A stretch of DNA of 56,388 nt, filler included, from Circinaria calcarea (taxonomy: Eukaryota), in NCBI GenBank assembly GCA_051942165.1. It is 4 parts of 4 records of this genome, joined end to end, with 100 filler letters (N's around TTAATTAATTAA, not from the genome) between each part and the next. Parts side by side here need not be neighbours in the genome. Positions count along the whole stretch, not along the records: positions 28,294 to 42,299 come from JAVECS010000462.1; 3 more parts are not named here. One strand, given 5' to 3'. Below, one piece after another: positions 7,523 to 42,399 of this stretch. The notes under the pieces were generated by a model. It made no database searches. It was not told where the DNA came from and saw nothing but the letters and a program-made list of their open reading frames with translations. The translations under genes were made by a program, and so were the position numbers. Numbering within the stretch: the first letter of the stretch is position 1; each line of letters opens with the position of its first letter.

Positions 7523-9860
7523 TCAAGTCTCGAGGACAACTCCTCCTAGTCCCATCCGCATGTTTTCCACCGTCTTGGCCCCTACTCCCTTCAGCCGTCC
7601 CAGCTGTCCAAGGCTGCCAATCACTCTCTCTCCCTTCTCCTCCTCCTCATCATTCTCACCTGTACACAATGCCTCTATGATGACTTCTGCCTTCTTCGCT
7701 CCGACGCCTTTGAGTAATCGGATCTGCTTGATGTCCCTCGTATTAATGATGCCTAGGAGGTGCTTCGTCCGAGGCGTATGGACGATATCTGGTTCCGAAT
7801 GGGATCGTGCGATGGTTAACCTCGTCCTCGAACGTGGTCGATGGATTTCTTGGGCTTTTGGCCGATAGCGGAAGCCATCATGAGAACCGTCTTCCAATTC
7901 ATCTGATGAGATCCTAGAGTCCTTAAACTCAGCCTCGGCTTCGGGGTCGTCACAGACTTTTACTTCCAACCCTCGTCTGAGGACTTCGCTGGGTAGCCTC
8001 GTCAAAGATGGTGGCTGTATATCTGGACTTTCTTGCTTCTGTCGTGTCGATTCCTTCTTCTGCCTGAGCTGCTGTCGTAGCTTCAGAATCTTATTTTCAA
8101 GCTTTGCATTGTCTGGGAAATGCTCCTTGGCAAGTTCATACATCTTCAAGGCACTCGTTGCCTCTCCTCTTACATAATGTTGCTTGGCCATCAAGAGGAA
8201 GGTTAATCCTTCGGCTCTGCTGTCACCATTACCTTCGATCTTCTGCTCCAGCGATTCTAGTCTCTGCTGTACTTCTTCGCTGAGAACAGAGACGGCTGCT
8301 TCCGATGGTTGGTCTAAGGCACGAGACGCAAGGATCTCGCTGACTTTCCTCTCAATGATTTCTTCGATGGTGGCTTTGGACATGGTAGGTTGTGCTCTCC
8401 GTATCGGAGAAGGGCTTGGACGAGCAATCTTAGAGGGCCGTGATGCTGCGGATGTGAAAGTTTCAGAAGGCCGCTTTAACGGCGAGGAGCGGAGATGAGT
8501 CTCAAGTTTGCGTGTTTGGTAGGATGTGTTGGAATGTCGAGGTTTTGACATATCAGAATAGACCGAGAAAGCTTTCAAAGGCTTATCGCCCGTCTTCGAC
8601 TGGTGAGTGGTGGTATTGATAGCGGCATTATGTACGGCGCTTGCCAGTGGTCTCAATGGCTGGCGCTGCATCGAGCACACATTGGAAGATGGCAGTGTTT
8701 TGGAGTAGGTGTCGAGGTTTGGCTCATTTTCGAAGACTTTAATTTCAATCTTTTTGGTTCTATTTGCGAAGTTCAAGGAACTGAGGGTGTCAAGATGGTA
8801 AGATCTAACTGGTGCAAGATTCAGAATCATGATTGTAAGTCCGTTATTCTGACCAAGGGATAGGATTCTCGTCATCTTTGACTCGCGGTAAGGAATCCGG
8901 CTCTGCTTCTTACTGATGGCTTCGACACACTGAGCAAGTACGAACAAACTTTTGTTGATACTGGCGGACTCCACCAGTCTTTCCTTGCCATTACCAGCCC
9001 TCCGGTTATCTTCGGAACCGGCAAGATCAATTGCAGATGCCATACTGACCCTTGTTTCTTCTGCTGTAGAGACGGCAACCTTGACACATAAGATTGCATG
9101 CGATCTAGACGAGTGTGCATTAAGCTACAGTATTTGGTTAGTGTGCGCCTGGACTGACTCCGAGGTATGTCATACCTTCGTCGCACTGGTTGAGCGATTG
9201 ACGTTCGCCTCACTGTATAGCTTCTCGAACTCTTTCAGGCTCTCACATGGCCTCTCGGTCAATCCAACTACCACGGTCTTTCCGCCATTGTCACGCAACT
9301 GCAATCCCGTCATTGTCCTCTTATCCGGAGCCTCAAACAAATCAAAGACCTTGTCATTATATATCTCGTAGTAACTCATAGTAACGTTCACGGTAGTCTC
9401 GTTCTTGGCGTCCTTCTCTATCTTCCTGCTTCTCCTGTAGATGCCGCTGAGTAACCGAGGAATAACACCACGTTCTGCCAACGTCTTACCGCCTCGCATT
9501 GTGTGAGTCTTGCCGGTACCAGTGACCCCGTAAGCGAACAGCGTAATATCGAAGCCATTGAAGAGGTGTTTAACGGTAGGTGACACTGTAGCCGTGATCA
9601 ATCCTACCAATCAACATGTCTCCCAAGCGCAATAACTACCTACCTTCGTTGTCAAAAATATCCTGCTGCGTCGCCTCGGGCCCATAAACACTGTTGAATT
9701 GGAAGTTGAAGTTCTCGTTATCGTTCTTTGGATTGGGAACGCGCACAACAGTCGGTTGACTCGACGGTTCACTCCCTGCACTGACTGCGGTGACTATAAC
9801 ATCCTTATTGAGCTCCGATTGCAAGAGTGGCCGCACGCGCGCCACAACACGTACAGACAT
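7523..9860 (-). CDS. Kinesin motor protein with C-terminal helix-hairpin-helix motifs (kinesin-10/KIF22-like)
   Basis: Exons 9860-9644, 9585-9176, 9124-7523. MSVRVVARVRP, P-loop AYGVTGTGKTHTM, switch motifs NAHSSRSH and DLAGSE, RIPYRESKMTRIL. C-terminal LKGVGAKKA / LKGVGAKTV HhH repeats. Confidence 0.92.
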
Positions 9861-10371
9861 GGTGTCTTTAGCAGTATTCTACAAAACTCAGGTCTCCGCA
9901 AAAAGTAGTTCAGCACATCATGAATTGACGGCGAACATGGGTCGTGAGCTTGGCACTCTCTGGGGAGGAGGTCGGCTCGTTTGTTGTCTCGGTGCAACTT
10001 CGGCTGTTGTCGGGAGAACAGCTGGGATTTTAACCGTCGAGTGCTGCCCTACTCCAAATAACACACCTATATCTTTGTATTAAGTCGCAACTATTTAAGG
10101 AGAGCAGTTGTACTTGGTATAGGCCGAATTGGAGTTGATGTAATAGGTCATAAACAGATACTGCCGCCAAAGCTGTGCATGAGTAGGTTGCTATACTACT
10201 CTGTAGTCACCGATATCACGTCATCCTCTTGGTAATTCAAGCCAGCGTCAGGAGCTCTTTAATACCTTGAAAATGGTAGTTTGAATGCGTTGAGAAATAA
10301 GAAAGATCTTAATCTAAGGATGCATATGTAGGATTGGCAGTTTTGCACCTCGCCGACCAACGTTATCCCAC

Positions 10372-11463
10372 TCATTCATCCGCCATCGGATCAGCTGGCG
10401 GCTCATCAAATTCCACTACCGGCCTGTCCGTAGGCCTTGGGAAATATCCTTTCGAAAAGGAAGGAGCAACGATTCTATGATCCGAGGCGTATTGAAGTAC
10501 GGCGTCAAAATCCCTGCACTGGTGTTGCACGTTGAAATTTGGGTGAGGAGCAAAATGACCTTTGATCCAGTTATAGGTGATGATGTTCGTATCGGCATCA
10601 CATATTAGCTTCTGGCGGAGGATATCTGTGCAGTGGTCTGTAGGATTCGTCAGTGAGCTTGAACCCCAGATAGCCAGTACTTTTGGTCGGAATTTACCAA
10701 TGTGTTTATGCCATGCTTCAGGATGCTCCCTAGAGTAGCTAGATGATGCGGTATAGTAATCTGGATAAGTTACCTCCCAGAGACTTTGCTACAATCTAAC
10801 TGTTAGCTAGGTTGAAACTTTCCGGGATTCTGTGTGAAGTTACCCACCAGGCAATGGATCTGGTGAATGGTTTCGAATAAAGCCAAACGACCGCCACCCA
10901 ATTCAAGGGGCACCTTCACCGCATGCTTCGACGTATTCAGTTGCTGGAGAACCTCTTCTGTGATGCTCATAGCACCGACTATTAAATCCATGTTAGCACT
11001 GTTTAAACTCCAAAAGCAGATCTCCATACGATGTGTTAAGCTATTCCAAGCCTTATCAACTGTAGGTGAAGGCGGCCCCTTAAAATTTGAGGACTGATCA
11101 AAAGTCCCGTTGAACCTCACGTTTCTGTAGGTATCGGGAACTGAGCCCATAATCAGGGCTAGACATGGCAAGTAGTTAGCGTGCTTAGCAGTACCTACGA
11201 TCTTATATATAACTTTACTCACACCATTTTGTATGCTGTGTTAAGCAGTCTTGCGGGATCGATTTCTTGAGAATAAAGGTAGATATCAGCATTGCCCCAG
11301 AGATCGAGAATAATACAACGTGTATTATCCAGGGTATTGCTTTTCTGAACAAGTTCGATGCCACTTGATGCTGATTTTGTAGGTCCCCCGTATGTCCTAG
11401 TAGAGATTCTTCTCCATCTTCTGTGTTCTTCAAACATGCCGTCGAGAACGCTTCATATTCCAT
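10372..11463 (-). CDS. DUF3328 / UstYa-family oxidase (285 aa), single N-terminal TM helix
   Basis: Exons 11463-11223, 11158-11030, 10978-10848, 10788-10698, 10637-10372. TM segment WIIHVVLFSISGAMLI, F-x-GPPSPTVDKAW, two HxxHC motifs (HQIHC, HIDHC), then ILRQKLMCDADT and PNFNVQHQCRDFD. Confidence 0.92.
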
Positions 11464-12372
11464 AATGCAGAACTTATCTATACAGTCAGATCTTAAACAC
11501 GGTTCGGGCCGGGTATGGTCAATAAATGAACTTCTATGCCGGGCGCATCAAGCTGGGAAAGCGGTCGGATAGGCGACGGCCGTATCTTCCTGTTCCTATC
11601 ATGCAACGAAGAAAGATATTCTGACGCCAACTCTTTCATGTCTGATAGGAATCTAAAACCCACCCATGCCACACTGACCATCCTAAATGGATGGAATATC
11701 TTGGCTAGAACGGTGAGCAAGCTGAGTGGGGTGGAAGATCTGGAATCATTTCCGATGCCTGGTCCATGGTGGTTGCATATAGACTTTGGTATCCATGATA
11801 GACGGTCTAACAATCCCTGCTACATCCTTTTCTGTTGATCTTTCCCGGAAACAGAGGCTCTGCATGACGCGCAACACTGTATTTGGGTAAGGCAAGAGGG
11901 ACGAAGAAGGCAAGATGGGCATCAAACGGTCTCGGTGCAAAGGATTTGCATTCTTTCATGTAAGAGTATGTGAGAGGGAGGCACAGAATCATGGAGTACC
12001 AGTCAGAATAGAATCAAAGAACCGGACGAGGCCTTGAAAAGGGAGTCAAAAGCGAGACATGACAAGACACAGGCATTAAGATGCAAAAACCACAAGCTAT
12101 CTCGACAGAATGGGAACAGCAGCCTAACGGGACTAGCAGGCCCTTAAGCTGTTATTGTGGGCACGGCTACGCTAATGCAGGCAACCCATTGTTAGTCCTA
12201 TCTCTCTTGCATTGCCAAGTGGCTTTGACGAGTGATTCTCCTGTTACCGATTTTACTTGAAAAGCAAACGGAACCTGCTTGTTTTCAACTCTTTCATTGA
12301 CCGTGATCCTTCTCTGCAAAGACATACCTTTTCCAATCCCAGTACTCGATTTCTAGTCCGCGAGCCACTAAG

Positions 12373-12647
12373 ATGCGGCTCGCCATCCTCTTCCTCGAGC
12401 TTGTCGCGGTACTGCCCCTTGTCTTGGGAGCTCCGATAGCACCTAAAAGTACCGGCTTATTGCTTGCAGCACGAATGAAGCTTATATTTGTATAGGTTCG
12501 GACTCTATCAACAGCATGATCTTTTACTACAATCAGGATCTAATCGAGCGTGGCAAGGAGGCATCGGAGGGACTCGCTAAACGTGTGGATATCGACAGCA
12601 TGGTCCTCCGCTACGACGAAGAGGTGATTGAACCAGGCAAGGAGTAG
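12373..12647 (+). CDS. Putative RiPP precursor / Kex2-processed repeat peptide (75 aa)
   Basis: Exons 12373-12448 and 12496-12647 with a 47-nt GT..AG intron. MRLAILFLELVAVLPLVLG-APIAPKSSD-SINSMIFYYNQDLIERGKE-ASEGLAKR-V-DIDSMVLRYDEEVIEPGKE*. Signal peptide, KR site and 84-nt internal repeat. Divergent from the DUF3328 gene. Confidence 0.75.
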
Positions 12648-13551
12648 TTGGAGGGACTCAGTACACGCGTGGAGACCGAAAGCATCATCTCCATTTGATG
12701 TGCTAGAAGGGCTCAAAGATGGTAGACAGAGCACAATCTGGAGCGGTATCAAGTCATGATGTTTTTCCCGAGTTTCAACGGAACGTAACGAACTAACGTG
12801 GGGCAAGAAGTCGACGGGGTTCTGTTAGATGGCTTTGGTCCGTTAGTTCAGAATAAACCAAAAAAAGATGCGTTAGGATGCCTTCAACTGCGCTGTGCCT
12901 CCTCTATGCATGTAGTTGACTATTGAATGGAAATCGATTGTGATGGTCTGCGAATGCGGGAAGTAAGCACTCTGTAGCGTTGTGGCTCTCCTAATTGGCT
13001 TTAGCCTGGGAGTGAACGGCGCATCCCCGCATATGACTTGCATTAGATCAAGGCACATTTTGGCCTCGCAATGGCAACGGGGAAGATCACGAACTCGAAT
13101 GTGGCAGGTGTCACCACGCGGATACTACGTTACGCGGGAATGGTTCTGATTGTGGTTACCGATGATGCGGATACACCAGACTTTTTGCCAGATCCGAGTT
13201 TCATCCACACGATTTCGGGTGGGCCTGGGCGACCCATAACAAAATGTCTCCTTATTTGTGGGGAAGGGGGGAAAAATCGACCACGGTTGACATCATCGAT
13301 AAAGCAAAGTTGCTCGCGATCAGATATCTCTGTGCCTAGGCTTACTTACGATACTGTACCGAGTGCCAGCATCAGATATCTCTGCCTCGGGTGTCAATCC
13401 CAGCTTTCTTTCCAAATGTAATCGGCTACGTTTGAAAGTAAAAATCCGAGCTAGATATATTCCACTTTCTCCGAAAAGCTCTCAAGCAGTTTGGTAGAGA
13501 AGACTAGAGTCTTGCTGTTTGAAGATATACCAAGAGTTTGAGATTTTGATA

Positions 13552-14051
13552 ATGGATCCAGAAGGCGAGAAAACCTCACGACTTTCTCAGGTCAACAATT
13601 CTCACGATGCAGCAACGATCGAGAAGGGTGTAACAGCTGAAGCGTGCAGTACGGCAGAAAACGAGGTTACCACGCCAGCTGTATTCGACTCAGTACCCGT
13701 CAGGAAACTCCCCTTAATATCAAACAGTCCTCAACGCGTGAAAGTTATCCAACTGCTTGGAGCTCTAGCTGCTATCGGGGCCGGAACAGCGAGGCCGCTG
13801 ATGACTCTTGTTTTTGGAGGATTAGTCAACAAATTCAACAGCTCTGGTGATCCTGTTGCGCTGAAAAACCTTATCGATCACGAAGTCCTGTTCCTTGTAT
13901 ATCTCTTTGTCGGTCAATGGGTTCTCGTTTGCAGCTATGGCATTTTCTTCTCCATCTCCGCCATGCGCTTTTCAACCAAACTTAGAGCCGCCTATCTACG
14001 TGCTGCAATATCACAGGACTTCAGGGACATAAGCCAAGGCGAAGTGGCCAA
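13552..14051 (+). CDS. ABC transporter, ABCB/MDR type (5' part only, cut by contig end)
   Basis: First TM-domain pattern GALAAIGAGTARPLMTLVFGGLVNKF...LFLVYLFVGQWVL...KLRAAYLRAAISQD. Confidence 0.85.
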
Positions 14052-14151
14052 NNNNNNNNNNNNNNNNNNNNNNNNNNNNNNNNNNNNNNNNNNNNTTAAT
14101 TAATTAANNNNNNNNNNNNNNNNNNNNNNNNNNNNNNNNNNNNNNNNNNNN
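14052..14151. other. Artificial contig-joining linker (N44-TTAATTAATTAA-N44)
   Basis: Palindromic six-frame stop spacer inside Ns. Genes on both sides are truncated. Confidence 0.97.
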
Positions 14152-28193: not shown

Positions 28194-28293
28194 NNNNNNN
28201 NNNNNNNNNNNNNNNNNNNNNNNNNNNNNNNNNNNNNTTAATTAATTAANNNNNNNNNNNNNNNNNNNNNNNNNNNNNNNNNNNNNNNNNNNN
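28194..28293. other. Artificial contig-joining linker
   Basis: Identical N44-TTAATTAATTAA-N44. Confidence 0.97.
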
Positions 28294-28586: not shown

Positions 28587-31500
28587 TCAGGGGCTCTGCT
28601 TCGTAATGCGTGCTCCCCTATCCAACAATGCCGTTAATGCCGGATCCTCTGGGTGTGGAGGCCGATCTTTGGCGACGAACATGGTATTCGTGATCAAAGC
28701 GTTTTGAAAATATCGACTGGCCTTCTTTTCCCGAAGTTGACGTCTCTTCTGGTAGCTTTGGTAAGTATGCTCGTCCAAGGTAGCGTAAAGGTATTTTGGA
28801 TGGACCCCTATCAATTGCGCGCCTTTTTGCCCAAAGCCAAAAGACGTAAGGGAAAAGGCTTTGATGCCGTTTGTCTGGATGCTGGTGCTTGGAAAGACGA
28901 CATGTTCAAACTGGTTAAGAGACACGTCTATGTTATCGGCATTCATATTCCCAGGTACCAGCCCACTACTGAGCATCTGCATGCACCCATTGAGCATCCA
29001 TGCACCGGCAGCACCTTTGGGATGGCCGGTCAGGTATTTCTGAGTAACCCCCAAGATCATGTTTCCTTTTTTTCGGCCAAGGCTCTTCAACTGCTGCTGC
29101 ACTGCTTCCACTTCATTCTTATCCCCTATGATCGTTGAAGTCCCGTGGAAGGAAGTGACGCTGACATCGTCAATAGTGAGGCCCCAGGTTGCTAAGGCCC
29201 CTCGCAAAGGTGAGATTCGATTGTCATTGGCCCAGAAATGGTTCCCGAAGCTGTTCATTGCTTCTTTCTCCTGCCGTTGAGCTTCCTGGTTTATATGGTG
29301 GATGTGTTCCTTCATGTAAGTAGGGACGTCGAACATCACATCTGTTGTTTTCATATTCTCAGCTTCCTCATACATCCACGCCAACTGCAAGGCCCAAATA
29401 TCATTGATCTGCATTCGTCGCAATTCGAATTGCCTTCTGCGGTAATTAATGTCTAGGAGCGGTGACGGAAATGCGGTTGATGTCTCTGCGGCGCATCCTA
29501 CAATTCCTTTCCCAGGAGCAGGTATCGAACGGCCAAGTTTGTCGCTTGCGGTCCCAGTAAATGCAATAATTGCATAAATTGGCAGACCCATCTCTAAAGC
29601 AAGTTCTGCTGTTGTGATGACTTGGAGACCGCATCCATGAGCCTCTACAAAGCCATTCCTTGAAGAGGTCATGGGTCTCGACATCTCCTTTGGAGTCCGG
29701 CCGCGATCGAATTCATCCCTTACGTTAACGGTGGCCTTCATATTTGCAAATTCAGAGGCTACTGCTTCTGACAAATCGTCAACCCCTCCTACCAGACACA
29801 TTTTGGCCTTTCCGCTCATGATCAATTCGCATCCGCTGTCCAGCGATTCGATAGAGGTAGCACAGGCTCCTACGGGTGTCTTGATAGGGCCGCTGGAAGA
29901 AAGAAGTAACATGTTGATCCATGCGCCGACGGTATTGATGAACGTCTCCTGGAGAATATCGTTCTGGACTGGCCTGCCCAAATATCGGCCCTTGAACATC
30001 TCTGCCAAGGAATCCATGCCACCTATACCAGAGCCAATACAGTTGCCAACTTCTGAGGTGTGAATGTATTGGTAAAATTCATAGAAGTCGGTGATGCCTG
30101 CAGAAAGTAGCGCTTCAACAGTACAAACAAGAGTGTAAAGCGTGATCGGGTCTACTTGCGAGACGATATCATCCGAAATCCCATATGTTCGTGCGGTCCA
30201 TCCGGTTGGAATCTGGCCCGCAACCACGTTCCCGTACTGCACAGCTTTAGGAATCATCAGAATAGCCCCTTTCTTGATTCGTACAATCCACTCGCCAGAC
30301 GCCGGGTCCTCGAAGATCTCAGCCAAGTGCCCATGCTTCCTCTGAAACTCTTCAGCTGTTTCCTTCGATGCGCTGAATGGCTCAAGATCCTCTTGAATAG
30401 CAACCTCCTGGAGTATATCTGTTTGGTGAGGGTCATTACCGTCCCAGAATTCAGGTTCGATAATCCGGATACCGGAATGCTCTAAAATGTACTTCTCGTA
30501 CCTTTTCTTAACATCCTTATCATCGACTGTTTCGCCGGTCTTTGTGTCAACCCAGCCAGAATACTGCTTTCCATTGATTGTTCCACTATGGTATTTGATG
30601 AGACCCATGATCCAAGACATTTCCATGCAGCCTTCAATGGAGAATTTGGAATGGGCTTCCATTTCCCATCTCGTGCGGGAATTACCGTATGGTCCTAACT
30701 CCGAGAATCCCGTAATAACAACGACGTGCTCAAGATCGATCATTCCTTTCAGTTGGGAAGCCAGGGGCCCAGCTTCTGCGTTATAGTCTGGTAGGGCCGG
30801 GAAATTTATCAACATATTGGCGCGAGGCTCAAGAACCACTGCTTGTGCTATCGAAGGAGCATGGTCGTTCTTAATATGGCTATTCTCTATGCATGTCTCT
30901 TCCGCAACTACCCTGCGGATGTTGCCAACCTCATTAACATTCCGTCGTATCTCGTCCACTGTGCGGGAGAGATTGGAGATGGAATCGAGTCCACCACTCA
31001 AATCTGCAATCAATGGCTCGTCTTGACAAAGGTTGATCATGGATGGCGTAGCAAGCCCAATGATGTTAAAGGCCATCTCTTTCTGTGAGAATGTTCGGAC
31101 CCCAAGATTTTCAATGCCTTCGGCGACCATGTCGTTGCTAGCCATTAAGCCTGTCCCACGAGTCCACCCAATAGCTGCACCGCAGATGGACAGGTAGTTG
31201 CCCCATTGTTCAGAATGCCATTTGTTGAACAGGCTTTCAAGTCCCATTTTAGACTCGGAATAAAGGCCATCGTTTCCGAAGATACCGTGGTTGGCTGACA
31301 AAGGTAAGATAACCTGAGCTGGACGTGTTTGATACCCGCGTATCTGCTTTTGCTCCTTTATGGCGCCGAGAAGACGTATTGTATTCGTTAACATGATGCG
31401 ATGTGCCAGCTCGCTCTTTGAGTCTATGCGGTCTATAGCACGGTCTGTTTCAGAAACAGCGGCGAATGGGATTACGATGTCGAGATCCCAGCCCAGCCCC

Positions 31501-33714
31501 TTTTTGGAGTCGTAGATATATTCAATCAGTGCTTTGATATCCTGCTGGCTTCCCTGGTTGAAGGGCAACAGTATCATTTGAGAGCCGCGGGCACCGCACT
31601 GAGAGTACAGGTTTTGGAAGTATTGGGTCGTTTCTGCAGAATAGTTACTGGTCGTCACTAGAACCTTGGCTCCTCCACTGATGAGGCACTGAAGAAGTTC
31701 AGATCCGATAGAACCACTTCCCGCTCCGGTTAAAAGAACATTTTTCTCATGGAAAGACACCCCTATGTTCTTTATTCGGTTCAAAGACTCCAGGTATGCG
31801 TCCGACATACGCTCCTCCCGTTCCCATCCAAAGGCTCCCCTTTTCTTCACATGTAGTAACGGAACGCTCCAGGGTTGCTTGTAGTATGGTATTCCGAAAT
31901 CTGCAGCTCCTTCATCAATAAATTGCTCCGGTTTTTTCACGGGCGACCTTGGAACCTCGATTGTTTCTATCTTGCCGTGTGCTCCGACAATGGTCCGAGG
32001 AGCACTGGAATTCCAAGCGCTTTGGAAAACTGGCAGTCTCGCTAAACCATCCTCACATCTGCAGAGGAGGTGCTCGATGGTCTTTTTAGCGGTTGCATAA
32101 CTACTTCCTTGCTCCACCCGACACCGACTTATAAGATATCTCATACAGTCGAGAAGCTTTGGACTCGAAGCGTTGACGATGTGGAGAAATTGTCGTTCGA
32201 AATCCCAATCAGTGCTTTGCAAGGTCCCAAGGAGAATACCATAGAACATTTTGAAAAGATCTTGTAGGGCCCAGTTCCAAAAGGAGTCGTATATGCGAAC
32301 ATTCAAAGGTTTAAGAATCGGTTTAATCCCGGAAGCATAAAACTCTCCGTGTTCGAGGTTCCAAAGATCGAGTTGTACCTGCAAGTTTTCCTGCGTCTTA
32401 CGTGAAGAATTCAGTGCTTTGTCGGCTGCTCTGAGATTGATATTAAGAGACCTAGCATAGAGCTCTAATTTCCTCCGGGAGAGATCTTTCTGATGTTCGC
32501 TCACGCAGTTTAAGGATGCAGAATCCAGCAGGACTTGCCCAGCAAGCTCTACTGCGGGTTGCTCATGGGATATACCTGCACCTGTTAGGTGTTTTTGGGC
32601 AATGCTGTCTAAGAAAGCTCTTGCATCTTTTTCAGTGGCGAGGCGAGTGTTAGGCTGCGCCATGATTGCAGATAAAAGGACTGCGTCCTGTCGGCCCTCC
32701 TTAAGGCCCCAATGGCCTTTCAGATAGCTTCTCGCCGCAGAAACGCCGAAACCTCCTGGCATTTTCGTCGACATCAATCGCGCCACCAGTGTTGAGGTTT
32801 GTTTGCCGAGGCGCCCAGTGAATGATGGTTTAATCCAATCACTAAGCTCATCCAGGCCGCATTCTTCAGGCCTCTCAGGTAAACTCCCGAATTCGTTGAT
32901 TAAATCCCCGGAAAGTTCATTCTCTAAGGTTGACCTGCCTAATGGTATGTCAGTGTCAAGGACGAGACCTTCTGTCTTGCCAAAGATACTGGACGAGCAT
33001 ACATACCTGCGGCAAGTATCTTGATCGTATTACTCAAGGAGAGTTTGTCGGTAGATTTCTTCAGCTTTTCTGCAACTATCGTCCGTACAATATCACTGAC
33101 TTGCGGGTTACTATCAGCTACCAATGCTACTGTTCTATTGCTTGATGATACTGCCTGCCCAATTGCTGCTGCAGAATAACCTGCTGGGCCACTAATCGGC
33201 GAGGGCGGAGTCTCCAATATGGTCCGAGAAGTAGGATCCTGCTCATCTTCCACCTGTTCTGCATGATAATAGAGTTCGTTCTTATGCTTTTGGCAGCAAA
33301 GAAGCTGCCTCTGGATTGATAACGCAGTGTCGCGGGTTTGATGTATATTATTGATGGTATGCTCAGCCATCCGGATCAAAGTATCCGAGGGGCCTATTTC
33401 AACAAGCCGCTCAACTTTCTTGTGTACTAGTAGTACATTCTGCGTTTCGATCCTGAGGACTATGTTAGCCAAGGCCTTGTAATGAATGCACTCAAGAAAC
33501 GCGACAGCCCCTTTCCGAGAACACTCGTCTACACTTCAAAACTAATCACAGCAACCTGAGGGCTCTGGAAACCTACCATTTCACCGGGAAGCAAAACTGA
33601 TGTCTGGTGTTTGCGCATTAGCATTTTGGTCAAGGGAAACCGGTAAAGGTGTGCTCACGATAACAATTCTATAAGAAGCACGTAAGTGAGCTCCTGCTCA
33701 ACCTCCGGAGTCAT
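28587..33714 (-). CDS. Fatty acid synthase alpha subunit (ACP-KR-KS, ~1626 aa), secondary-metabolism type, no C-terminal PPT domain
   Basis: Exons 33714-33659, 33603-33577, 33452-33007, 32938-28587. MTPEVEQEL..HQFCFPVKWIETQ, ACP GRSTLENE, KR LLTGAGSGSIG and YSESKMGL, KS TPVGACATS, FHGTST, GHPKGAAG. Stops right after the KS domain. Confidence 0.93.
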
Positions 33715-34682: not shown

Positions 34683-36006
34683 TCATGTAGTAAATAGGCA
34701 TTGCTGTGTTGAATAGACCAACTTTGACGATGCCCAGACACAGAAAGCGGCAACCCAGCAGTAGCCTACAATACGCCATTTCAGGCCAATTGAATCTTCA
34801 ACCCTGTTTTGTTCTGCAAGTTCGCGAGATTCCAGGATTTCATCGGTAGACGATGGCTGCGTTCGTTTCGAAGTCCGCAACTTCGCCATAGATCCATTTG
34901 ATCGAAGGGCTGTTGTAGTCTTTGCGGAACTCAACGATTTCACCGTGTCACCCTCGAGAGGTCTTGTGCCATTCGAACCTTCCGACTTTTTGGAAGTTGC
35001 TAACATATACAATCTTATTATTTGATCCTCAGCAAAGATTGCTGTAGCGACGCTGAGGTAGTACCGCATCTGTGGCATGACGGAGCATCGGAGGGGCACG
35101 TCCGGAGCTGCCGCGATATGCAAGAGGGCAGAGATCATGAAGGTAGCAATGATTATCAACGGTCGCGAAAATCTGCTACTACGAGGTAATCCGAGTACAT
35201 TATTGAGGATAACGAAAGCGTGTACGGTGAATGCTTTACGCATGAGCGAATGCCAAAAGTTCCTAAAGTATATTAGATACTAAACTCGAGACTGGTGATG
35301 TTGCGCGTAGTTACCCATAGAACCGGCGCATGGTATACGCTTCTTTGATGCCTCCATACAGAGGACGCCATCCCGCGGGAGAATCTCCACATACAACCGC
35401 TAGAAATCCTGCGGTGTTGTGTGCAGCTCGAAGTGTGAGATAGGGTATTGACATGCTAGCGACTGCTAGATATGTTCGTATCGTTATTTCCCGTAGCGTT
35501 ACCGAGGACAGGCGGTGAAGGTAACCGTTGGATACCTCGGTGAAGTCCTCGATGTAGAGTTCGGGTGTATAAGTCTCGAACAGGTATATCAGAGCCGTTG
35601 TCCAGGCGAGATCCCAGAGTTTGTACATAAGGAATGAGGTTTTGGAGGGGGATCTATCTGGATCTCTTTCGTCAAAGGGAGGCAGGTTACTTGCGCGTAC
35701 ACTCCATCGCGGATTGAAAATCTGATTAAACGCCCACTGAAGCCGAGTGCGCGACTCTCCATCAATCGGGGGGGATAGCTTCGCCAGGCATAGCCAGTAA
35801 TTTGTGTGGAGAATGAAGCCGACGAGATATTCTGCGCCGATATAGCCTGGAATCGTGCTAACCACCGTACTCCGAACAGAAATCAAGCAACATATCGCAA
35901 CAAGAGCGACAGCTGCTGGTCTCTGAATCGACGTTGGACTGGTGTAGGCTAGAGCAAGACAACAGACGATCTTTGAGAAGTAGAAAGGAAGAACGGAATC
36001 AATCAT
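34683..36006 (-). CDS. Membrane-bound O-acyltransferase (MBOAT_2 / wax synthase / TRI7-like)
   Basis: Exons 36006-35315 and 35262-34683. WRPLYGGIKEAYTMRRFYG/NFWHSLMRK, FMISALLH, WRIVGYCWV. Several hydrophobic segments. Confidence 0.85.
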
Positions 36007-37055
36007 GACGCCAGTGGGATCTGGAAAGGAAGTTGGGCAAGAGACACCGAAGAATGACTCGTAGTGACAAGAGAATTCAGCGCCAGTGGGGAGATTGAAG
36101 AGGAAGCATACATCAAAAGGAAGACATGAGTTGATCTCAATCCAGCGAGTCTACGGAGTAATGTACCAAAGAAGCACAATTGGTCTTGCCGGCCCCATTG
36201 CGCCGTCGATGCGCCAACGCAAGACCAACATCATGTAGATGATTACTTCCTCTGTCTATGGTGGTTCATTCAACCCACCATATGCCTGGTAAGCAATAAG
36301 CATTGCGCCCCCAGACGGAGACTTGTTATCGAGGAGGCACGGCGAGGATTCTCATGGGCAGTGCAAAACAGAGTTGGCTTTACTAGTGTGCCAAGCAGCT
36401 AGAACTAGGGAGCCCCCCCCCACAAAGGTTTGTTGAGACACCGCCGACCATTGGGGGCGTCTATTGAAGCCATAGCGGCCGAAGGGTCCCCCTCCCAACT
36501 TTTCCCGCACCGCCCTCTTTACTCTCACTCTCGCACTATCAACCTATCACATCCAAGAAACTGTCCCTTGATTGGCACACTCCCGAGCCGCCACGCACGG
36601 ACAACATAACGCGAATATTCTCGTGTGAGGCTATAACTGATACGGATAAACCGACTGTTGGAACAGAATAGTTGGTCCCCTTGGACCAACATAGAGAGAA
36701 AAGCCTTGCCCCTCTATCGAATTGAGATCTCCGAAATCCAATACACCAACCTACACCACGACTATAGCCTTCTCGAAAACCAACATGAAGCTGCACGACA
36801 GTGTACTGTCCGCCCACGTTTCAGAACTCACACGGCCGTTGTTCAGTCCAGCTAGCCCGGTAAAGTGAGGAGTACGCTTGACCTATGGGTCTACAACGCT
36901 CTCTCACAAGCACGGCTGATGAGCTACTGCTCCTGTCTGAATCCCGCGCATTTGTGTCCAGCCTCAACTACTAACCAACAGTAAGCATGGCGGAGATTGG
37001 GAAGACTGTGCCAACATGGAGGTACTGAACATTGCTCTGGCCGGTAAGGACTTTG

Positions 37056-37065
37056 ATATATATAT
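37056..37065 (+). promoter_or_regulatory. TATA-like element upstream of the secreted precursor gene
   Basis: ATATATATAT about 170 bp upstream of the ATG at 37230, followed by a pyrimidine/CA-rich leader. Confidence 0.4.
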
Positions 37066-37229
37066 GTGTGGGTAGAGTCCTCTCTTTTGCTCCTCCAGAT
37101 CAGAACAATCATCCACTCCTACAATAAAACAGCATACAATTGAAGGCTTCTTTCGATTCAATCCTACATTCTTATTCATCTTACAAGACTTGACATCTAT
37201 TTAATAATCTTCCACACACACTCTACATC

Positions 37230-38037
37230 ATGAAGGTCACCACAGTTCTCATCGCCCTCGTCGGAGCGACTTCCGTAGTACAGGCAGGTGGTGTTGGCAA
37301 GGCCATCAAAGGCATCTTTTCACGTGATCCAGAGTTCGCCAGAGCGGTACTTGGTTAGACCCCCCCTACACCTATAACTAGTGACGACCAGCTAAACCAA
37401 TCTCTCAGAGGCACGAGACAGGACTATTAAAGAATGGCAGCAGGCTGTCGCGAACCCATCAACCATTTCCCCAGAGATGATGAGTGCTCTCAAAGCTCAG
37501 GGATTCAAGCCACCACCCGGAACCAAGACAAAGCGAGGACCTTCCCCTGCTAAGGGAAACTCCATCCCGAAAAAAGAGGCCCTCGCCCATGTTTCAAAAG
37601 GAAATCAGATTCCACAGCCGGTGCTCCAATCGATGGCCTCAAAAGGGTGGAGCGGTCCCAAACTTGGGAGCAAATCGAAGCGCGACGTTGACGAAATCTA
37701 CGCCCGTGAAGCTGAGGCCATCGCTGAGGAGATCAGCAACTTTGCCCGCGACCTTGAATCCGCCATTTTTGCCCGCGACGCTGAGGCCGACTTCGAGGAA
37801 CGTGACTTCGAGGAGCGCGACTTTGAGGAGCGCGACCTGTACGAGCGCGACCTCTTCGAGCGTGACGCCTACCCCGAGGCGTACTTTGAGGAGCGTGATC
37901 TCTTCGAGCGTGACGCTTACCCAGAGGCTTACTTCGAGGAGCGTGACGCCCTTCCCGAGTCTTACTTCTACGAACGTGACGCCATCCCAGAGCCGTACTT
38001 CTTCGAGCGCGACGCAGAGGCTGTGGAGTCTTATTAA
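37230..38037 (+). CDS. Secreted Kex2/Ste13-type polypeptide precursor (250 aa) with basic peptides and acidic ERD repeats
   Basis: Exons 37230-37353 and 37409-38037. Signal peptide MKVTTVLIALVGATSVVQA, two KR sites and many xR-D/E junctions. Strong C/G-ending codon bias. Confidence 0.85.
37790..38020 (+). repeat. Coding tandem repeats DFEER/DLYER/DLFER (15 nt) and DAYPEAYFEER-type (33 nt)
   Basis: The repeated gagcg(c/t)gac core is visible in the DNA and the translation. Confidence 0.9.
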
Positions 38038-39535: not shown

Positions 39536-40229
39536 TTACATCAACCATTCTTGGAGGATTGCATCCGGCACGCCCCGCACAAGTACGTGGAAGTGTTCAA
39601 GACCTCTGACGCTTTGCAGACCGGTCCAATTTCGAAACCACATAACGCGAGTGTTGGAATCATTATCGTTTGCTAGTTTGTCAACAAATTCTTTTTGTAC
39701 AAACTCTTGAATCCTCTGCCTTGCATTTTCCGCTAGGTCGCCTTCGGGCCCATTAGTTGGCAATCTATGCTTCAACCATACCACCAAATGTGTAATATCT
39801 GTGGCCAAGCCGTAGGGCCAGTCATTGCGGAGGATCTTATAGTCATCGGGGTTGGATAATGGTGCAGTACTTGCACAACGAAATGTAGGGCCCATTGATT
39901 CAGTTGAAACTGATAAAGGATGCCAGTGCAGACGCTCCTGGCAGATGAAGTTGGTGATTGAGCCATAGGCTGTTTTGATTTCATTGGTCCATCTCATATA
40001 GCGTCGAAGGTCTGAAGGTCTCCGTTTCAGAACCGACAGGTTGTTGTCTTCTAATAGCGCAGTTTGGTCAATTGATCTCAGGACCGACTCAACACGACTA
40101 ACGGATTATCTGCCTCAGCTCCATCCATGTGTGAGCTTGGAATTCTTCGTCTGAAAGCGCCAAGACCTTACGATCGGTAACGGTGAGATCAAAAGGAGGT
40201 TGCCCGGCTGTATCATGATGGTGGTCCAT
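39536..40229 (-). CDS. DUF3605 family protein (GIG1/YPL067C-like)
   Basis: Two exons. DEEFQAHTWMELRQII / NNLSVLKRRPSDLRRY, YKILRNDWPYG, HLVVWLK, WFRNWTGLQSVRGLEHFHVLVR. Confidence 0.85.
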
Positions 40230-40565: not shown

Positions 40566-41699
40566 ATGGCTACAGCTCATCAAGTCAAGCCCCGATCCTT
40601 CCTCTCCCCACAATACATCCACGGCGTTTACATTCCCTCGGGACTCCTAATAGTTGGCGTTGCGATATGCAAGTTTGAGTGGCTTCCTTACGCAATAGCT
40701 TTAGCATTGGCTCTCGGTTCCTATAAGATACATCAAAACCGTTTGTCTCCGCCGCCTAATTCTCCACTACAAAATAACTTGGCCATAGCATATCAAAGCT
40801 GACATAATACTCGAACGCAGAAGTGAAAAAGGCCCTCAACCCAAACGTATTCCAAGAGTTCGAGCTGAAAGAAAAAACGGTCCTCTCACATAATGTGGCA
40901 ATGTGGGTGACGATATCCCCGGCAGCATCTTATTTCATTAAACCTTGACCAGCTACCGATTCAACCTACCTTCTGCCAACAGCATCCTAGGCCTACCGAT
41001 TGGGCAGCACATCTCGGTCGCGGCAACAATCAAAGGTCAACCAAAAGAGGTCGTTCGCTCCTATACGCCAATCTCGTCCGACGAAGACCACGGCTTCTTT
41101 GATCTTCTCATCAAGTCTTACCCAACTGGAAATATATCCAAGCATATGGCATCCATGAAGGTCGGCCAGACCCTGAAAGTAAAGGGCCCCAAGGGAGCAA
41201 TGGTATACTCACCTAACTTGGTACGGCATTTTGGCATGATCGCTGGAGGTACGGGCATTACACCAATGCTGCAGATTATCCGAGCAATCATCAGGGGGCG
41301 CCCTAGGAACGGGGGGAAAGACACCACTGAAGTTGACCTGATTTTTGCAAACGTGAGTGAAGAGGATATCCTTTTGAAAGAGGACCTGGATACCTTAGTG
41401 AAGGAGGATGAGGGCTTCCGTGTACACTATGTGCTTAACAATCCTCCGGAAAAGTGGAATGGTGGAGTTGGGTTTGTTACACCAGATATAATTAAGGTGG
41501 ATCGAAATCGAAGTATAAGTGAGGAGGACCTCTACTGACATTCGCATAGGCCAAGCTGCCTGCACCGGCCAAAGATATTAAAATCTTGATTTGCGGTCCT
41601 CCGCCAATGGTGAGTGCAATGAAGAAGGCTACTGAATCACTGGGCTACGAAAAGCCAAGGCCAGTTAGCAAGTTAGATGATCAGGTCTTCTGTTTCTAG
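40566..41699 (+). CDS. CBR1: NADH-cytochrome b5 reductase
   Basis: Four exons. [37 protein letters not shown], ending DQVFCF*. Confidence 0.95.
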
Positions 41700-42299: not shown

Positions 42300-42399
42300 N
42301 NNNNNNNNNNNNNNNNNNNNNNNNNNNNNNNNNNNNNNNNNNNTTAATTAATTAANNNNNNNNNNNNNNNNNNNNNNNNNNNNNNNNNNNNNNNNNNNN
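42300..42399. other. Artificial contig-joining linker
   Basis: Identical N44-TTAATTAATTAA-N44. Confidence 0.97.

Follow-up and report, generated by a model that had tools for sequence, protein, structure and literature searches.

We analysed a stretch of 56,388 nucleotides of DNA from Circinaria calcarea, a lichen-forming fungus (Lecanoromycetes, Ostropomycetidae, Pertusariales), here called the window, and within it a gene on the + strand at positions 37230–38037. Its product has a signal-peptide-like start, basic modules and a strongly acidic repeat tail, and arginine directly followed by aspartate recurs along the whole chain. Our preferred reading, which we hold tentatively, is that the protein is a pre-pro-protein that would be processed at many sites. 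It resembles the Kex2-processed repeat proteins (KEPs), although it falls outside their formal definition, which asks for dibasic sites. The coordinates of the features are collected in Table 1.

The gene has two exons (37230–37353 and 37409–38037), which when joined translate exactly to P0003, a protein of 250 amino acids annotated as “hypothetical protein Q9187_003027” in a C. calcarea metagenome-assembled genome; exon 2 alone matches it at 100%. The original prediction, made from the DNA alone, had described an open reading frame (ORF) with a signal-peptide-like start, a 13-residue peptide (13-mer), two basic stretches ending in KR and an acidic repeat tail. All of these are present as quoted; the gene has in addition a 55-nt intron, and residues 33–46 (DPEFARAVLEARDR) had been skipped. 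In a metatranscriptome contig from run X1, position 37353 is directly followed by 37409 (the join being taken with the cut +1 offered by the tool), and the unspliced locus is present in a DNA contig of a second run, X2. The RNA contig comes from a relative at about 88% identity, with 17 of 138 bases differing in exon 1 and 12 of 83 in exon 2. The intron is skipped in this contig, which shows that the copy in the relative is transcribed and that its splicing agrees with the annotation. The gene is thus real. The two runs (word shares 0.07 and 0.06) are both labelled biocrust metagenome, which would place expression of the family in a natural biocrust community; they are used here for the splice junction and for sequence differences only, and not for habitat or expression level.

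By inspection, the first 19 residues comprise a basic n-region and a hydrophobic core, positions −3 and −1 being occupied by small residues, and full-length homologs begin in a similar way. Residues 33–46 align with ..LFQRDPDFEFAMGILAR.. of a Xylographa paralog. They are followed by two basic modules, A1 and A2. The segment holding A2 opens with the X-Pro dipeptides GP-SP and closes with KSKR. The proposed homology of the two basic modules holds: profiles taken from the family alignment match with an hhalign probability of 97.1% (E 5.9e-11, 33 columns), while a single-pair BLASTP comparison is weak (E 0.035, 27% identity over 37 residues). The sites in the first part of the tail are IYAR↓EAEA, NFAR↓D, IFAR↓DAEA, FEER↓D (three times), LYER↓D and LFER↓D, and the second part is made up of the units DAYPEAYFEER, DLFER, DAYPEAYFEER, DALPESYFYER, DAIPEPYFFER and DAEAVESY. 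The tail as a whole (residues 134–250) is strongly acidic, as had been claimed, with a net charge of −30 over 117 residues and not about 118; residues 20–133 carry a net charge of +14. The mature chain contains no Cys, no GPI-type or otherwise hydrophobic C-terminus and no Ser/Thr-rich block, and is therefore not a typical wall protein.

The repeats are also visible in the DNA. Tandem Repeats Finder detects 15-, 30-, 33- and 48-nt arrays at 37788–38015, the 15- and 30-nt arrays starting at 37788 in the first acidic part and the 48- and 33-nt arrays lying in the second. Nowhere else in the window does an array fall in a recognised gene; one other array is listed, at 295–329 (1.9 copies of 18 nt). 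The repeat number varies within the acidic array (37818–37864, around 37834): the X1 RNA contig is shorter by 30 nt and the X2 DNA contig by 45 nt, both in frame.

Arginine and aspartate are paired throughout the protein. Asp stands directly after 15 of the 19 Arg residues, and 15 of the 17 Asp residues are directly preceded by Arg. The 15 RD dipeptides compare with 1.29 expected; the maximum among shuffled sequences was 7, and none of 20,000 shuffles reached 15. The P4 residue is Ile, Leu or Phe at 14 of the 19 Arg, and X-Ala or X-Pro dipeptides come after nine of the 19, in runs of as many as three (DA-YP-EA, EA-EA-IA, GP-SP). The motif [I/L/F]-x-x-Arg↓Asp marks the entire chain and not the tail alone. 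There are only two canonical KR sites, R84 and R133, which bound the non-repeat modules; the tail junctions from R155 onwards are all ER↓D or AR↓D (12 of 12), and R141 is AR↓E. The earlier suggestion of a Kex2-type multi-peptide precursor thus fits the layout, with its two KR sites, but had missed the 15 Arg-Asp sites.

The same pattern is seen across the family. We built a logo from 501 R[D/E] sites in 67 of 74 stored proteins, leaving out two query fragments, P0044 (a 705-residue unrelated repeat protein), P0058 and P0059 (which have canonical KR/RR repeats), and P0024 and P0026 (whose tails look frameshifted). At P4 the commonest residues are Leu (49%), Phe (16%) and Ile (10%); at P3, Tyr (30%), Glu (21%) and Phe (12%); and at P2, Glu (42%), Ala (25%) and Lys (12%). 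P1′ is Asp in 79% and Glu in 20%, the presence of one or the other being fixed by the site definition. On the primed side, Ala (49%) and Leu (22%) predominate at P2′, Pro (28%) and Ala (25%) at P4′, and Ala (29%) at P6′, and the odd positions are almost without Ala. Over the 67 proteins, Asp follows 404 of 879 Arg residues, and in 42 of them the RD count is above that of all 500 shuffles.

Both halves of this motif have precedents. Leu at P4 with Arg at P1 (LxxR) has been proposed as a Kex2 motif, based on pro-domain junctions of SnTox3, ToxA and SIX proteins that Kex2 cuts in vitro (passages of bioRxiv 10.1101/2020.05.27.120113). Runs of XA or XP dipeptides after the cut are described as the signature of Ste13 in alpha-pheromone precursors and some KEPs (passages of PMC6339444 and PMC9769878). 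The site motif of the Circinaria protein unites the LxxR-type kexin motif with this Ste13-type trimming signature. Promelittin is matured by stepwise removal of X-Pro and X-Ala, and the dipeptide runs of the Circinaria protein are similar in kind.

On our preferred reading, the signal peptide would be removed and the chain then cut after Arg in the secretory pathway, at the two KR sites and at the recurring [L/I/F]-x-[E/A]-Arg before Asp or Glu. New N-termini that begin with X-Ala or X-Pro would be trimmed by a dipeptidyl aminopeptidase of the Ste13 type, and a Kex1-type carboxypeptidase may take off the terminal Arg. The expected products would be a Gly/Lys peptide of 12–13 residues, two basic helix-loop-helix peptides of roughly 35–45 residues from the A modules, and, from the tail, many very small acidic peptides containing Tyr or Phe. 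The acidic array would then consist almost wholly of cutting and trimming signals, and could act as a portable processing cassette.

The structure was predicted using AlphaFold2. With 13 sequences the prediction was too poor to use (predicted local distance difference test, pLDDT, 54.2); with 41 sequences the mean pLDDT was 70.7, and this model was used. It places helices at residues 34–56 and 63–71 in and around module A1 (block pLDDT 79–88) and at 96–104 and 111–119 in module A2, followed by one long helix from 135 to 194 (block pLDDT 86–97 for residues 141–190), and leaves residues 195–250 disordered (pLDDT about 48–54). By sequence there was no match in the PDB below E 0.46, and Foldseek found none in the PDB at E ≤ 0.001. 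VIA-align in its wide mode matched generic long helices only, over residues of about 129–198 with Z ≤ 6.6, and barely covered the A modules. Prediction of a complex between residues 31–133 and 134–200 gave a score of 0.02; it was run without controls, and no inference is drawn from it.

Several observations weigh against multi-site processing. Its cleavage steps are deduced from sequence. Glu and Ala at P2 should be poor for yeast Kex2; because P2 is mostly one of these two, a different or specialised monobasic protease may act. Of the R↓D/E junctions in the tail, the first ten (R141–R193) fall within the confidently predicted helix, which could just as well mean that Arg-Asp/Glu salt bridges serve a structural role. 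Once cut and trimmed, the tail would yield nothing but tetra- to hexapeptides, and the near-invariance of its last 41 residues among close relatives implies a sequence-specific role that processing leaves unexplained. Finally, the relatives were retrieved with profiles that themselves contain the motif, so that the family logo is partly circular; for many of the proteins in it, the A modules and a further module, M (see below), provide independent evidence of kinship.

Alternatively, the protein may be secreted and act intact, which we consider possible though somewhat doubtful. It would then be a block polyampholyte of about 24 kDa (residues 20–250), basic and helical at its front, continuing as a long acidic helix and ending in a tail that is disordered, aromatic and acidic, and would serve a structural purpose in the extracellular matrix or at the hyphal surface, for example self-association, binding of water or cations, or adhesion, and the Arg-Asp pairs would be salt bridges or stickers and not cut sites. 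Such a protein is consistent with the predicted 60-residue helix and disordered tail, with the order of basic front and acidic back, which is kept in 14 of 14 members, and with the nearly invariant end of the tail and the Tyr or Phe found at the C-terminus of 37 of the 67 family proteins; a variable number of repeats is likewise common in structural repeat proteins. It gives no obvious structural reason for the two-residue period of Ala and Pro at P2′, P4′ and P6′, which fits a dipeptidyl aminopeptidase, and the five-residue FEERD period produces no amphipathic helix face. The chain also lacks the Cys residues, GPI-type end and Ser/Thr-rich region noted above, long charged helices are often over-predicted, and the fold search returned nothing beyond generic helices.

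The proposed alignment of homologs to find the variable parts was carried out, and shows that the basic modules vary while the last 41 residues of the tail are nearly invariant. Residues 210–250 of P0003 are identical to those of P0004, P0005 and P0006 at 37/38, 40/41 and 41/41 positions, respectively; over the A2 region (85–125) the corresponding figures are 22/41, 21/41 and 21/41. The contigs of the relative agree with this, on codon-position counts made by hand from a list of 40 of the 113 differences and therefore partial. In the tail, 13 of 16 listed differences are at third codon positions; three amino acids are changed and 30 nt deleted. In the 13-mer GGVGKAIKGIFSR, 10 of 12 are at first or second positions and 6 of 13 residues are changed. 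The basic modules and the 13-mer thus appear to evolve fast and the end of the tail to be under strong constraint. An end so nearly invariant argues that the tail is more than filler or a mere counter-ion.

Fast basic parts beside a constrained acidic part recall the antimicrobial peptide precursors of frogs, whose signal peptide and acidic propiece are, in the passages concerned of PMC7106915, conserved next to a hypervariable mature peptide, with coordinated charges. To that extent the likeness favours the basic parts as the active products, and within a processed precursor the fast-evolving basic modules would be the likeliest bioactive products. A fuller analogy with frog or insect precursors, in which the released 12/13-mer and the two modules would be antimicrobial and the acidic tail a propiece rendering them harmless while they are secreted, seems to us unlikely. 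In its favour, besides the 51–54% identity of A2 among close relatives compared with 97–100% at the acidic end and the predominance of first- and second-position changes in the 13-mer, is the 13-mer itself, with a charge of +2/+3 and a helical moment of 0.49, a value that 2.7% of shuffles attain, or 15.9% when the Arg is counted in. Against it, the aligned N-terminal element of other members (SIMDLF.., SLKSLFQR, SIASLFAR) is not cationic, and neither, by eye, is module A1 in Xylographa and Lambiella members; the A modules have Pro/Gly-rich loops and a low overall moment of 0.22–0.23. The resemblance to antimicrobial peptides originally proposed is therefore weakly supported, through the charge and moderate moment of the 13-mer only.

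The companion proposal, that the acidic tail neutralises the cationic peptides, is not supported. In 14 members, some of them truncated at the N-terminus, the charge of the basic half ranges from +10 to +21 and that of the acidic half from −18 to −31. All 14 have a negative sum (−5 to −21; in the Circinaria protein +15 stands against −30), and the two halves do not co-vary (r = −0.08). It is moreover the end of the tail that is most conserved. The frog precursors (PMC7106915, in part) also differ from the Circinaria protein in layout: in the precursors cited the acidic part is N-terminal, and here it lies at the C-terminus, with a charge far larger than that of the basic part. The two are from different kingdoms and share no homology.

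We then examined the distribution of the family. A word-indexed search found 20 proteins at E ≤ 0.001 (1,418 candidates), and an exhaustive profile search of 1.84 billion representatives found 48 at E ≤ 0.001, of which 18 were at ≤ 1e-10 and 8 at ≤ 1e-30; a second profile search gave 22 proteins. All hits with an organism name come from Circinaria, Lambiella or Xylographa (Ostropomycetidae), most hits being without a name. Lambiella and Xylographa genomes each have several paralogs, and in the Lambiella insularis and Xylographa assemblies family members lie on contigs of 90–790 kb. A search with residues 40–135 alone returned only the protein itself and three close relatives (4 matches from 17 candidates). 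The protein falls into no Pfam family at E ≤ 1, and the 41 family members gave chance-level matches only, confined to four of the 40 aligned relatives (Cut8 in three, PqqD in one and DUF6612 in one). A full-text literature search found no paper on this family. Lecanoromycetes are not mentioned in the main texts of PMC6339444 and PMC7329392, nor lichens in that of the latter, their supplementary KEP tables aside. The family is undescribed, and its named members all belong to lichen-forming Ostropomycetidae.

The family follows a common plan, beginning with a signal peptide and a variable N-terminal piece with [K/R]-S/A-[I/L]-x-x-[L/I]-F-x-R. The A modules have the pattern A-x-H-V-x-x-G-x-x-I-P-x-x-I...A-G-W-x-x-P and are followed by a Gly/Lys-rich basic linker ending in KR-D, then I-Y-A-R-E, and by acidic repeats of the type E-R-D-A-x-P-E-x-Y-F-E-E-R-D. 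Many members (P0018, P0022, P0041 and others) also have one or two copies of the helical module M, of about 45 residues, which is absent in Circinaria; its pattern is ..L..ME..P.A...V..A.N.DP.VE.FTE.L...W, without a match in Pfam. The acidic array occurs in other settings as well. In P0007, P0010 and P0051 it is joined to a basic C-terminal peptide with two Cys, and in the similar P0045 to one with three; the order in all four is signal peptide, acidic repeats of the FERDAYPEAYYEE type, and a basic peptide with KDTLKC...C.G. The array surrounds Gly/Asn-rich blocks in P0021, a single A module lies between FEERD arrays in P0012, and the string RDA.PE also follows canonical KR/RR in the repeat proteins P0058 and P0059. 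It is because the array is joined to such unrelated cargo that we read it as a portable processing cassette.

Two JGI metagenome contigs of 1.5–1.7 kb (L001, 844–1065, and L002, 776–997) carry the same ORF end: a Pro/Lys-rich stretch, KRD, three ERDAEPE/ERDAYPE units and a ..YYYDDEL terminus. From its sequence this ORF appears to be another small member of the acidic-cassette group.

A bolder form of our preferred reading, which we regard as speculative and rather improbable, is that lichen fungi of the Ostropomycetidae may follow their own grammar of processing. Its site would be monobasic and Asp-primed, [L/I/F]-x-[E/A]-Arg↓Asp followed by X-Ala/X-Pro trimming, with a protease that is perhaps not classical Kex2. 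Portable acidic cassettes would release helical mini-proteins (from the A and M modules) as well as very small peptides of acidic aromatic character, and these products would be fast-evolving extracellular signals or weapons directed towards the photobiont or the thallus microbiome. If this were true, current pipelines for KEPs and effectors would be blind to the class. Should the Arg-Asp junctions prove to be cut sites, KEPs would have to be conceived more broadly than by dibasic sites, and symbiosis and antimicrobial assays would gain a set of lineage-specific peptides; otherwise, the protein would be an unusual extracellular block polyampholyte, relevant, though less so, to the biology of the lichen matrix and of desiccation. 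The secreted peptides of lichen fungi are, to our knowledge, almost unexplored, and a family of them touches on the questions of communication between fungus and alga and of control of microbes in the thallus. The grammar itself is clear and unusual, and it occurs in a little-studied symbiotic lineage.

The closest known systems are the KEPs, including yeast alpha-factor, which share the signal peptide, Arg-ended tandem units, X-Ala/X-Pro dipeptides, lack of Cys and variable repeat number (parts of PMC6339444, PMC7329392 and PMC9769878). In contrast to these, the Circinaria units end in Glu-Arg or Ala-Arg and not in KR, RR or KK, so that the repeats are not separated by dibasic sites and the published KEP pipelines would not call the protein; in addition, almost nothing is left between the cutting and trimming signals, there are two extra non-repeat helical modules, and cleavage is putative here. 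The Kex2-processed pro-domain (K2PP) effectors with LxxR sites (SnTox3, ToxA and SIX1/4/6) are similar in having, in the published parts consulted, a hydrophobic P4, Arg at P1, variable P2 and P3 and a disordered acidic stretch near the site, although the P4 residue published there is Leu and here is sometimes Phe. In these effectors a single disordered pro-domain at the N-terminus is described as preceding a folded, Cys-rich domain at the C-terminus, which is the larger of the two and accounts for over half of the protein. The Circinaria protein instead has about 15 sites and a C-terminal disordered acidic part, and only relatives of the P0007 type keep the K2PP order.

Comparison with Ece1 had also been suggested, and is fair as regards layout. 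The peptides of Ece1 are bounded by KR and are not tandem repeats, and an acidic array is not known in it. Ece1/candidalysin of Candida albicans and Rep1 of Ustilago, both mentioned in PMC9769878, are likewise secreted polyproteins cut after Arg into several peptides; the searches made gave no sequence similarity to either. An alpha-type mating pheromone precursor is the least probable of the identities considered. A Ste13 signature behind Arg is a typical feature of the alpha-pheromone precursors of ascomycetes (PMC6339444, in part), and an MF_alpha cluster ranked third in a protein-atlas feature search with a score of 0.78; the best scores there were 0.77–0.78 and serve as leads only. There is no match to Pfam MF_alpha or MF_alpha_N, the sites are separated by 3–7 acidic residues and not by a repeated 9–14-residue peptide of the Trp/Cys/Gly-Gln type, and the presence of several paralogs within single genomes of Lambiella and Xylographa also speaks against a pheromone.

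The remaining candidate is a dikaritin precursor (of ustiloxin, asperipin or phomopsin type), a peptide synthesised by ribosomes and modified after translation (RiPP) in which YFEE, YFYE and YFFE of the tail would be cores cross-linked by UstYa-family enzymes; we consider this very unlikely. The precursors UstA, AprA and PhomA are also secreted and have tandem short acidic units containing Tyr (PMC7329392, in part). Tyr or Phe is present in every long unit of the Circinaria tail, whose last units are almost invariant, and the same source, in the part concerned, finds repeats with Tyr enriched among KEPs adjoining DUF3328/UstYa genes (65.6% versus 38.2%). The window does contain a UstYa/DUF3328 gene, at 10372–11240 (− strand; two ORFs, Pfam E 3.5e-20 and 4.5e-09). 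It is not on the contig of the precursor gene: four contigs (14,051, 14,042, 14,006 and 13,989 nt) make up the window, separated by three spacers, N44-TTAATTAATTAA-N44, at 14052–14151, 28194–28293 and 42300–42399, which have stops in all six frames. Linkage of genes in different pieces is therefore not established; that of the UstYa gene to the precursor gene was rejected on this ground, and the UstYa gene gives no support to the RiPP reading. Known cluster partners lie on average 3.09 genes away (PMC7329392, in part). The neighbours on the gene's own contig (28294–42299, 14,006 nt, equal to the length recorded for the contig of P0003) are those listed at the end of Table 1, and the tail units have ER or AR in place of KR, RR or KK boundaries. 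By the tests run, the protein does not appear to be a relative of MF_alpha proteins, dikaritins or Ece1.

No protease, UstYa, tyrosinase or transporter gene was found beside the precursor gene, among the two to three genes on each side in the 14-kb contig, and no UstYa, tyrosinase or methyltransferase among 17 long ORFs picked from the 54 of at least 90 amino acids in 24000–50000. Around the UstYa gene, no repeat-type precursor ORF was seen in 9600–13600, nor any tandem repeat nearby. A tblastn search with nine family proteins found no second copy of the precursor gene in the window.

Table 1. Features of the precursor gene and its product, and genes on the same contig
Feature	Positions	Strand	Basis or remark
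Signal-peptide-like start MKVTTVLIALVGATSVVQA, residues 1–19	37230–37286	+	Inspection; predicted cut after VQA
13-mer GGVGKAIKGIFSR, residues 20–32, ends IFSR↓D	37287–37325	+	Sequence, site list
DPEFAR / AVLEAR / DR, residues 33–46 (DPEFARAVLEARDR)	37326–37422	+	Each piece ends in Arg; interrupted by the intron
Intron, 55 nt, GTTAGA...TCTCAG (GT..AG)	37354–37408	+	Skipped by the relative's RNA contig (run X1)
Basic module A1, residues 47–84, helix-loop-helix, ends KTKR, charge +4	37423–37536	+	Alignment, AlphaFold2
Basic module A2 and linker, residues 85–133, charge +8	37537–37683	+	Alignment, AlphaFold2
Acidic part 1, residues 134–194	37684–37866	+	Site list; one long helix predicted
Acidic part 2, residues 195–250, Pro-containing units	37867–38034	+	Predicted disordered
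Stop codon TAA	38035–38037	+	Sequence
Fatty-acid synthase alpha (acyl carrier protein, ketoreductase and ketosynthase domains)	28587–33535	−	Same contig as precursor gene
MBOAT_2 acyltransferase	34683–36150	−	Same contig as precursor gene
DUF3605 gene	39536–40105	−	Same contig as precursor gene
Cytochrome-b5-reductase-like gene	40942–41538	+	Same contig as precursor gene

Three further observations were made in the window. The fatty-acid synthase alpha gene adjoins that for MBOAT_2, and the two may form a lipid or wax-ester gene pair. Elsewhere in the window, an ABC-transporter ORF (13498–14103, + strand) is interrupted by the first spacer. A TATA-like run, gatatatatatgtgtg, at 37040–37070, about 170 nt 5′ of the start codon of the precursor gene, is a possible core promoter element.

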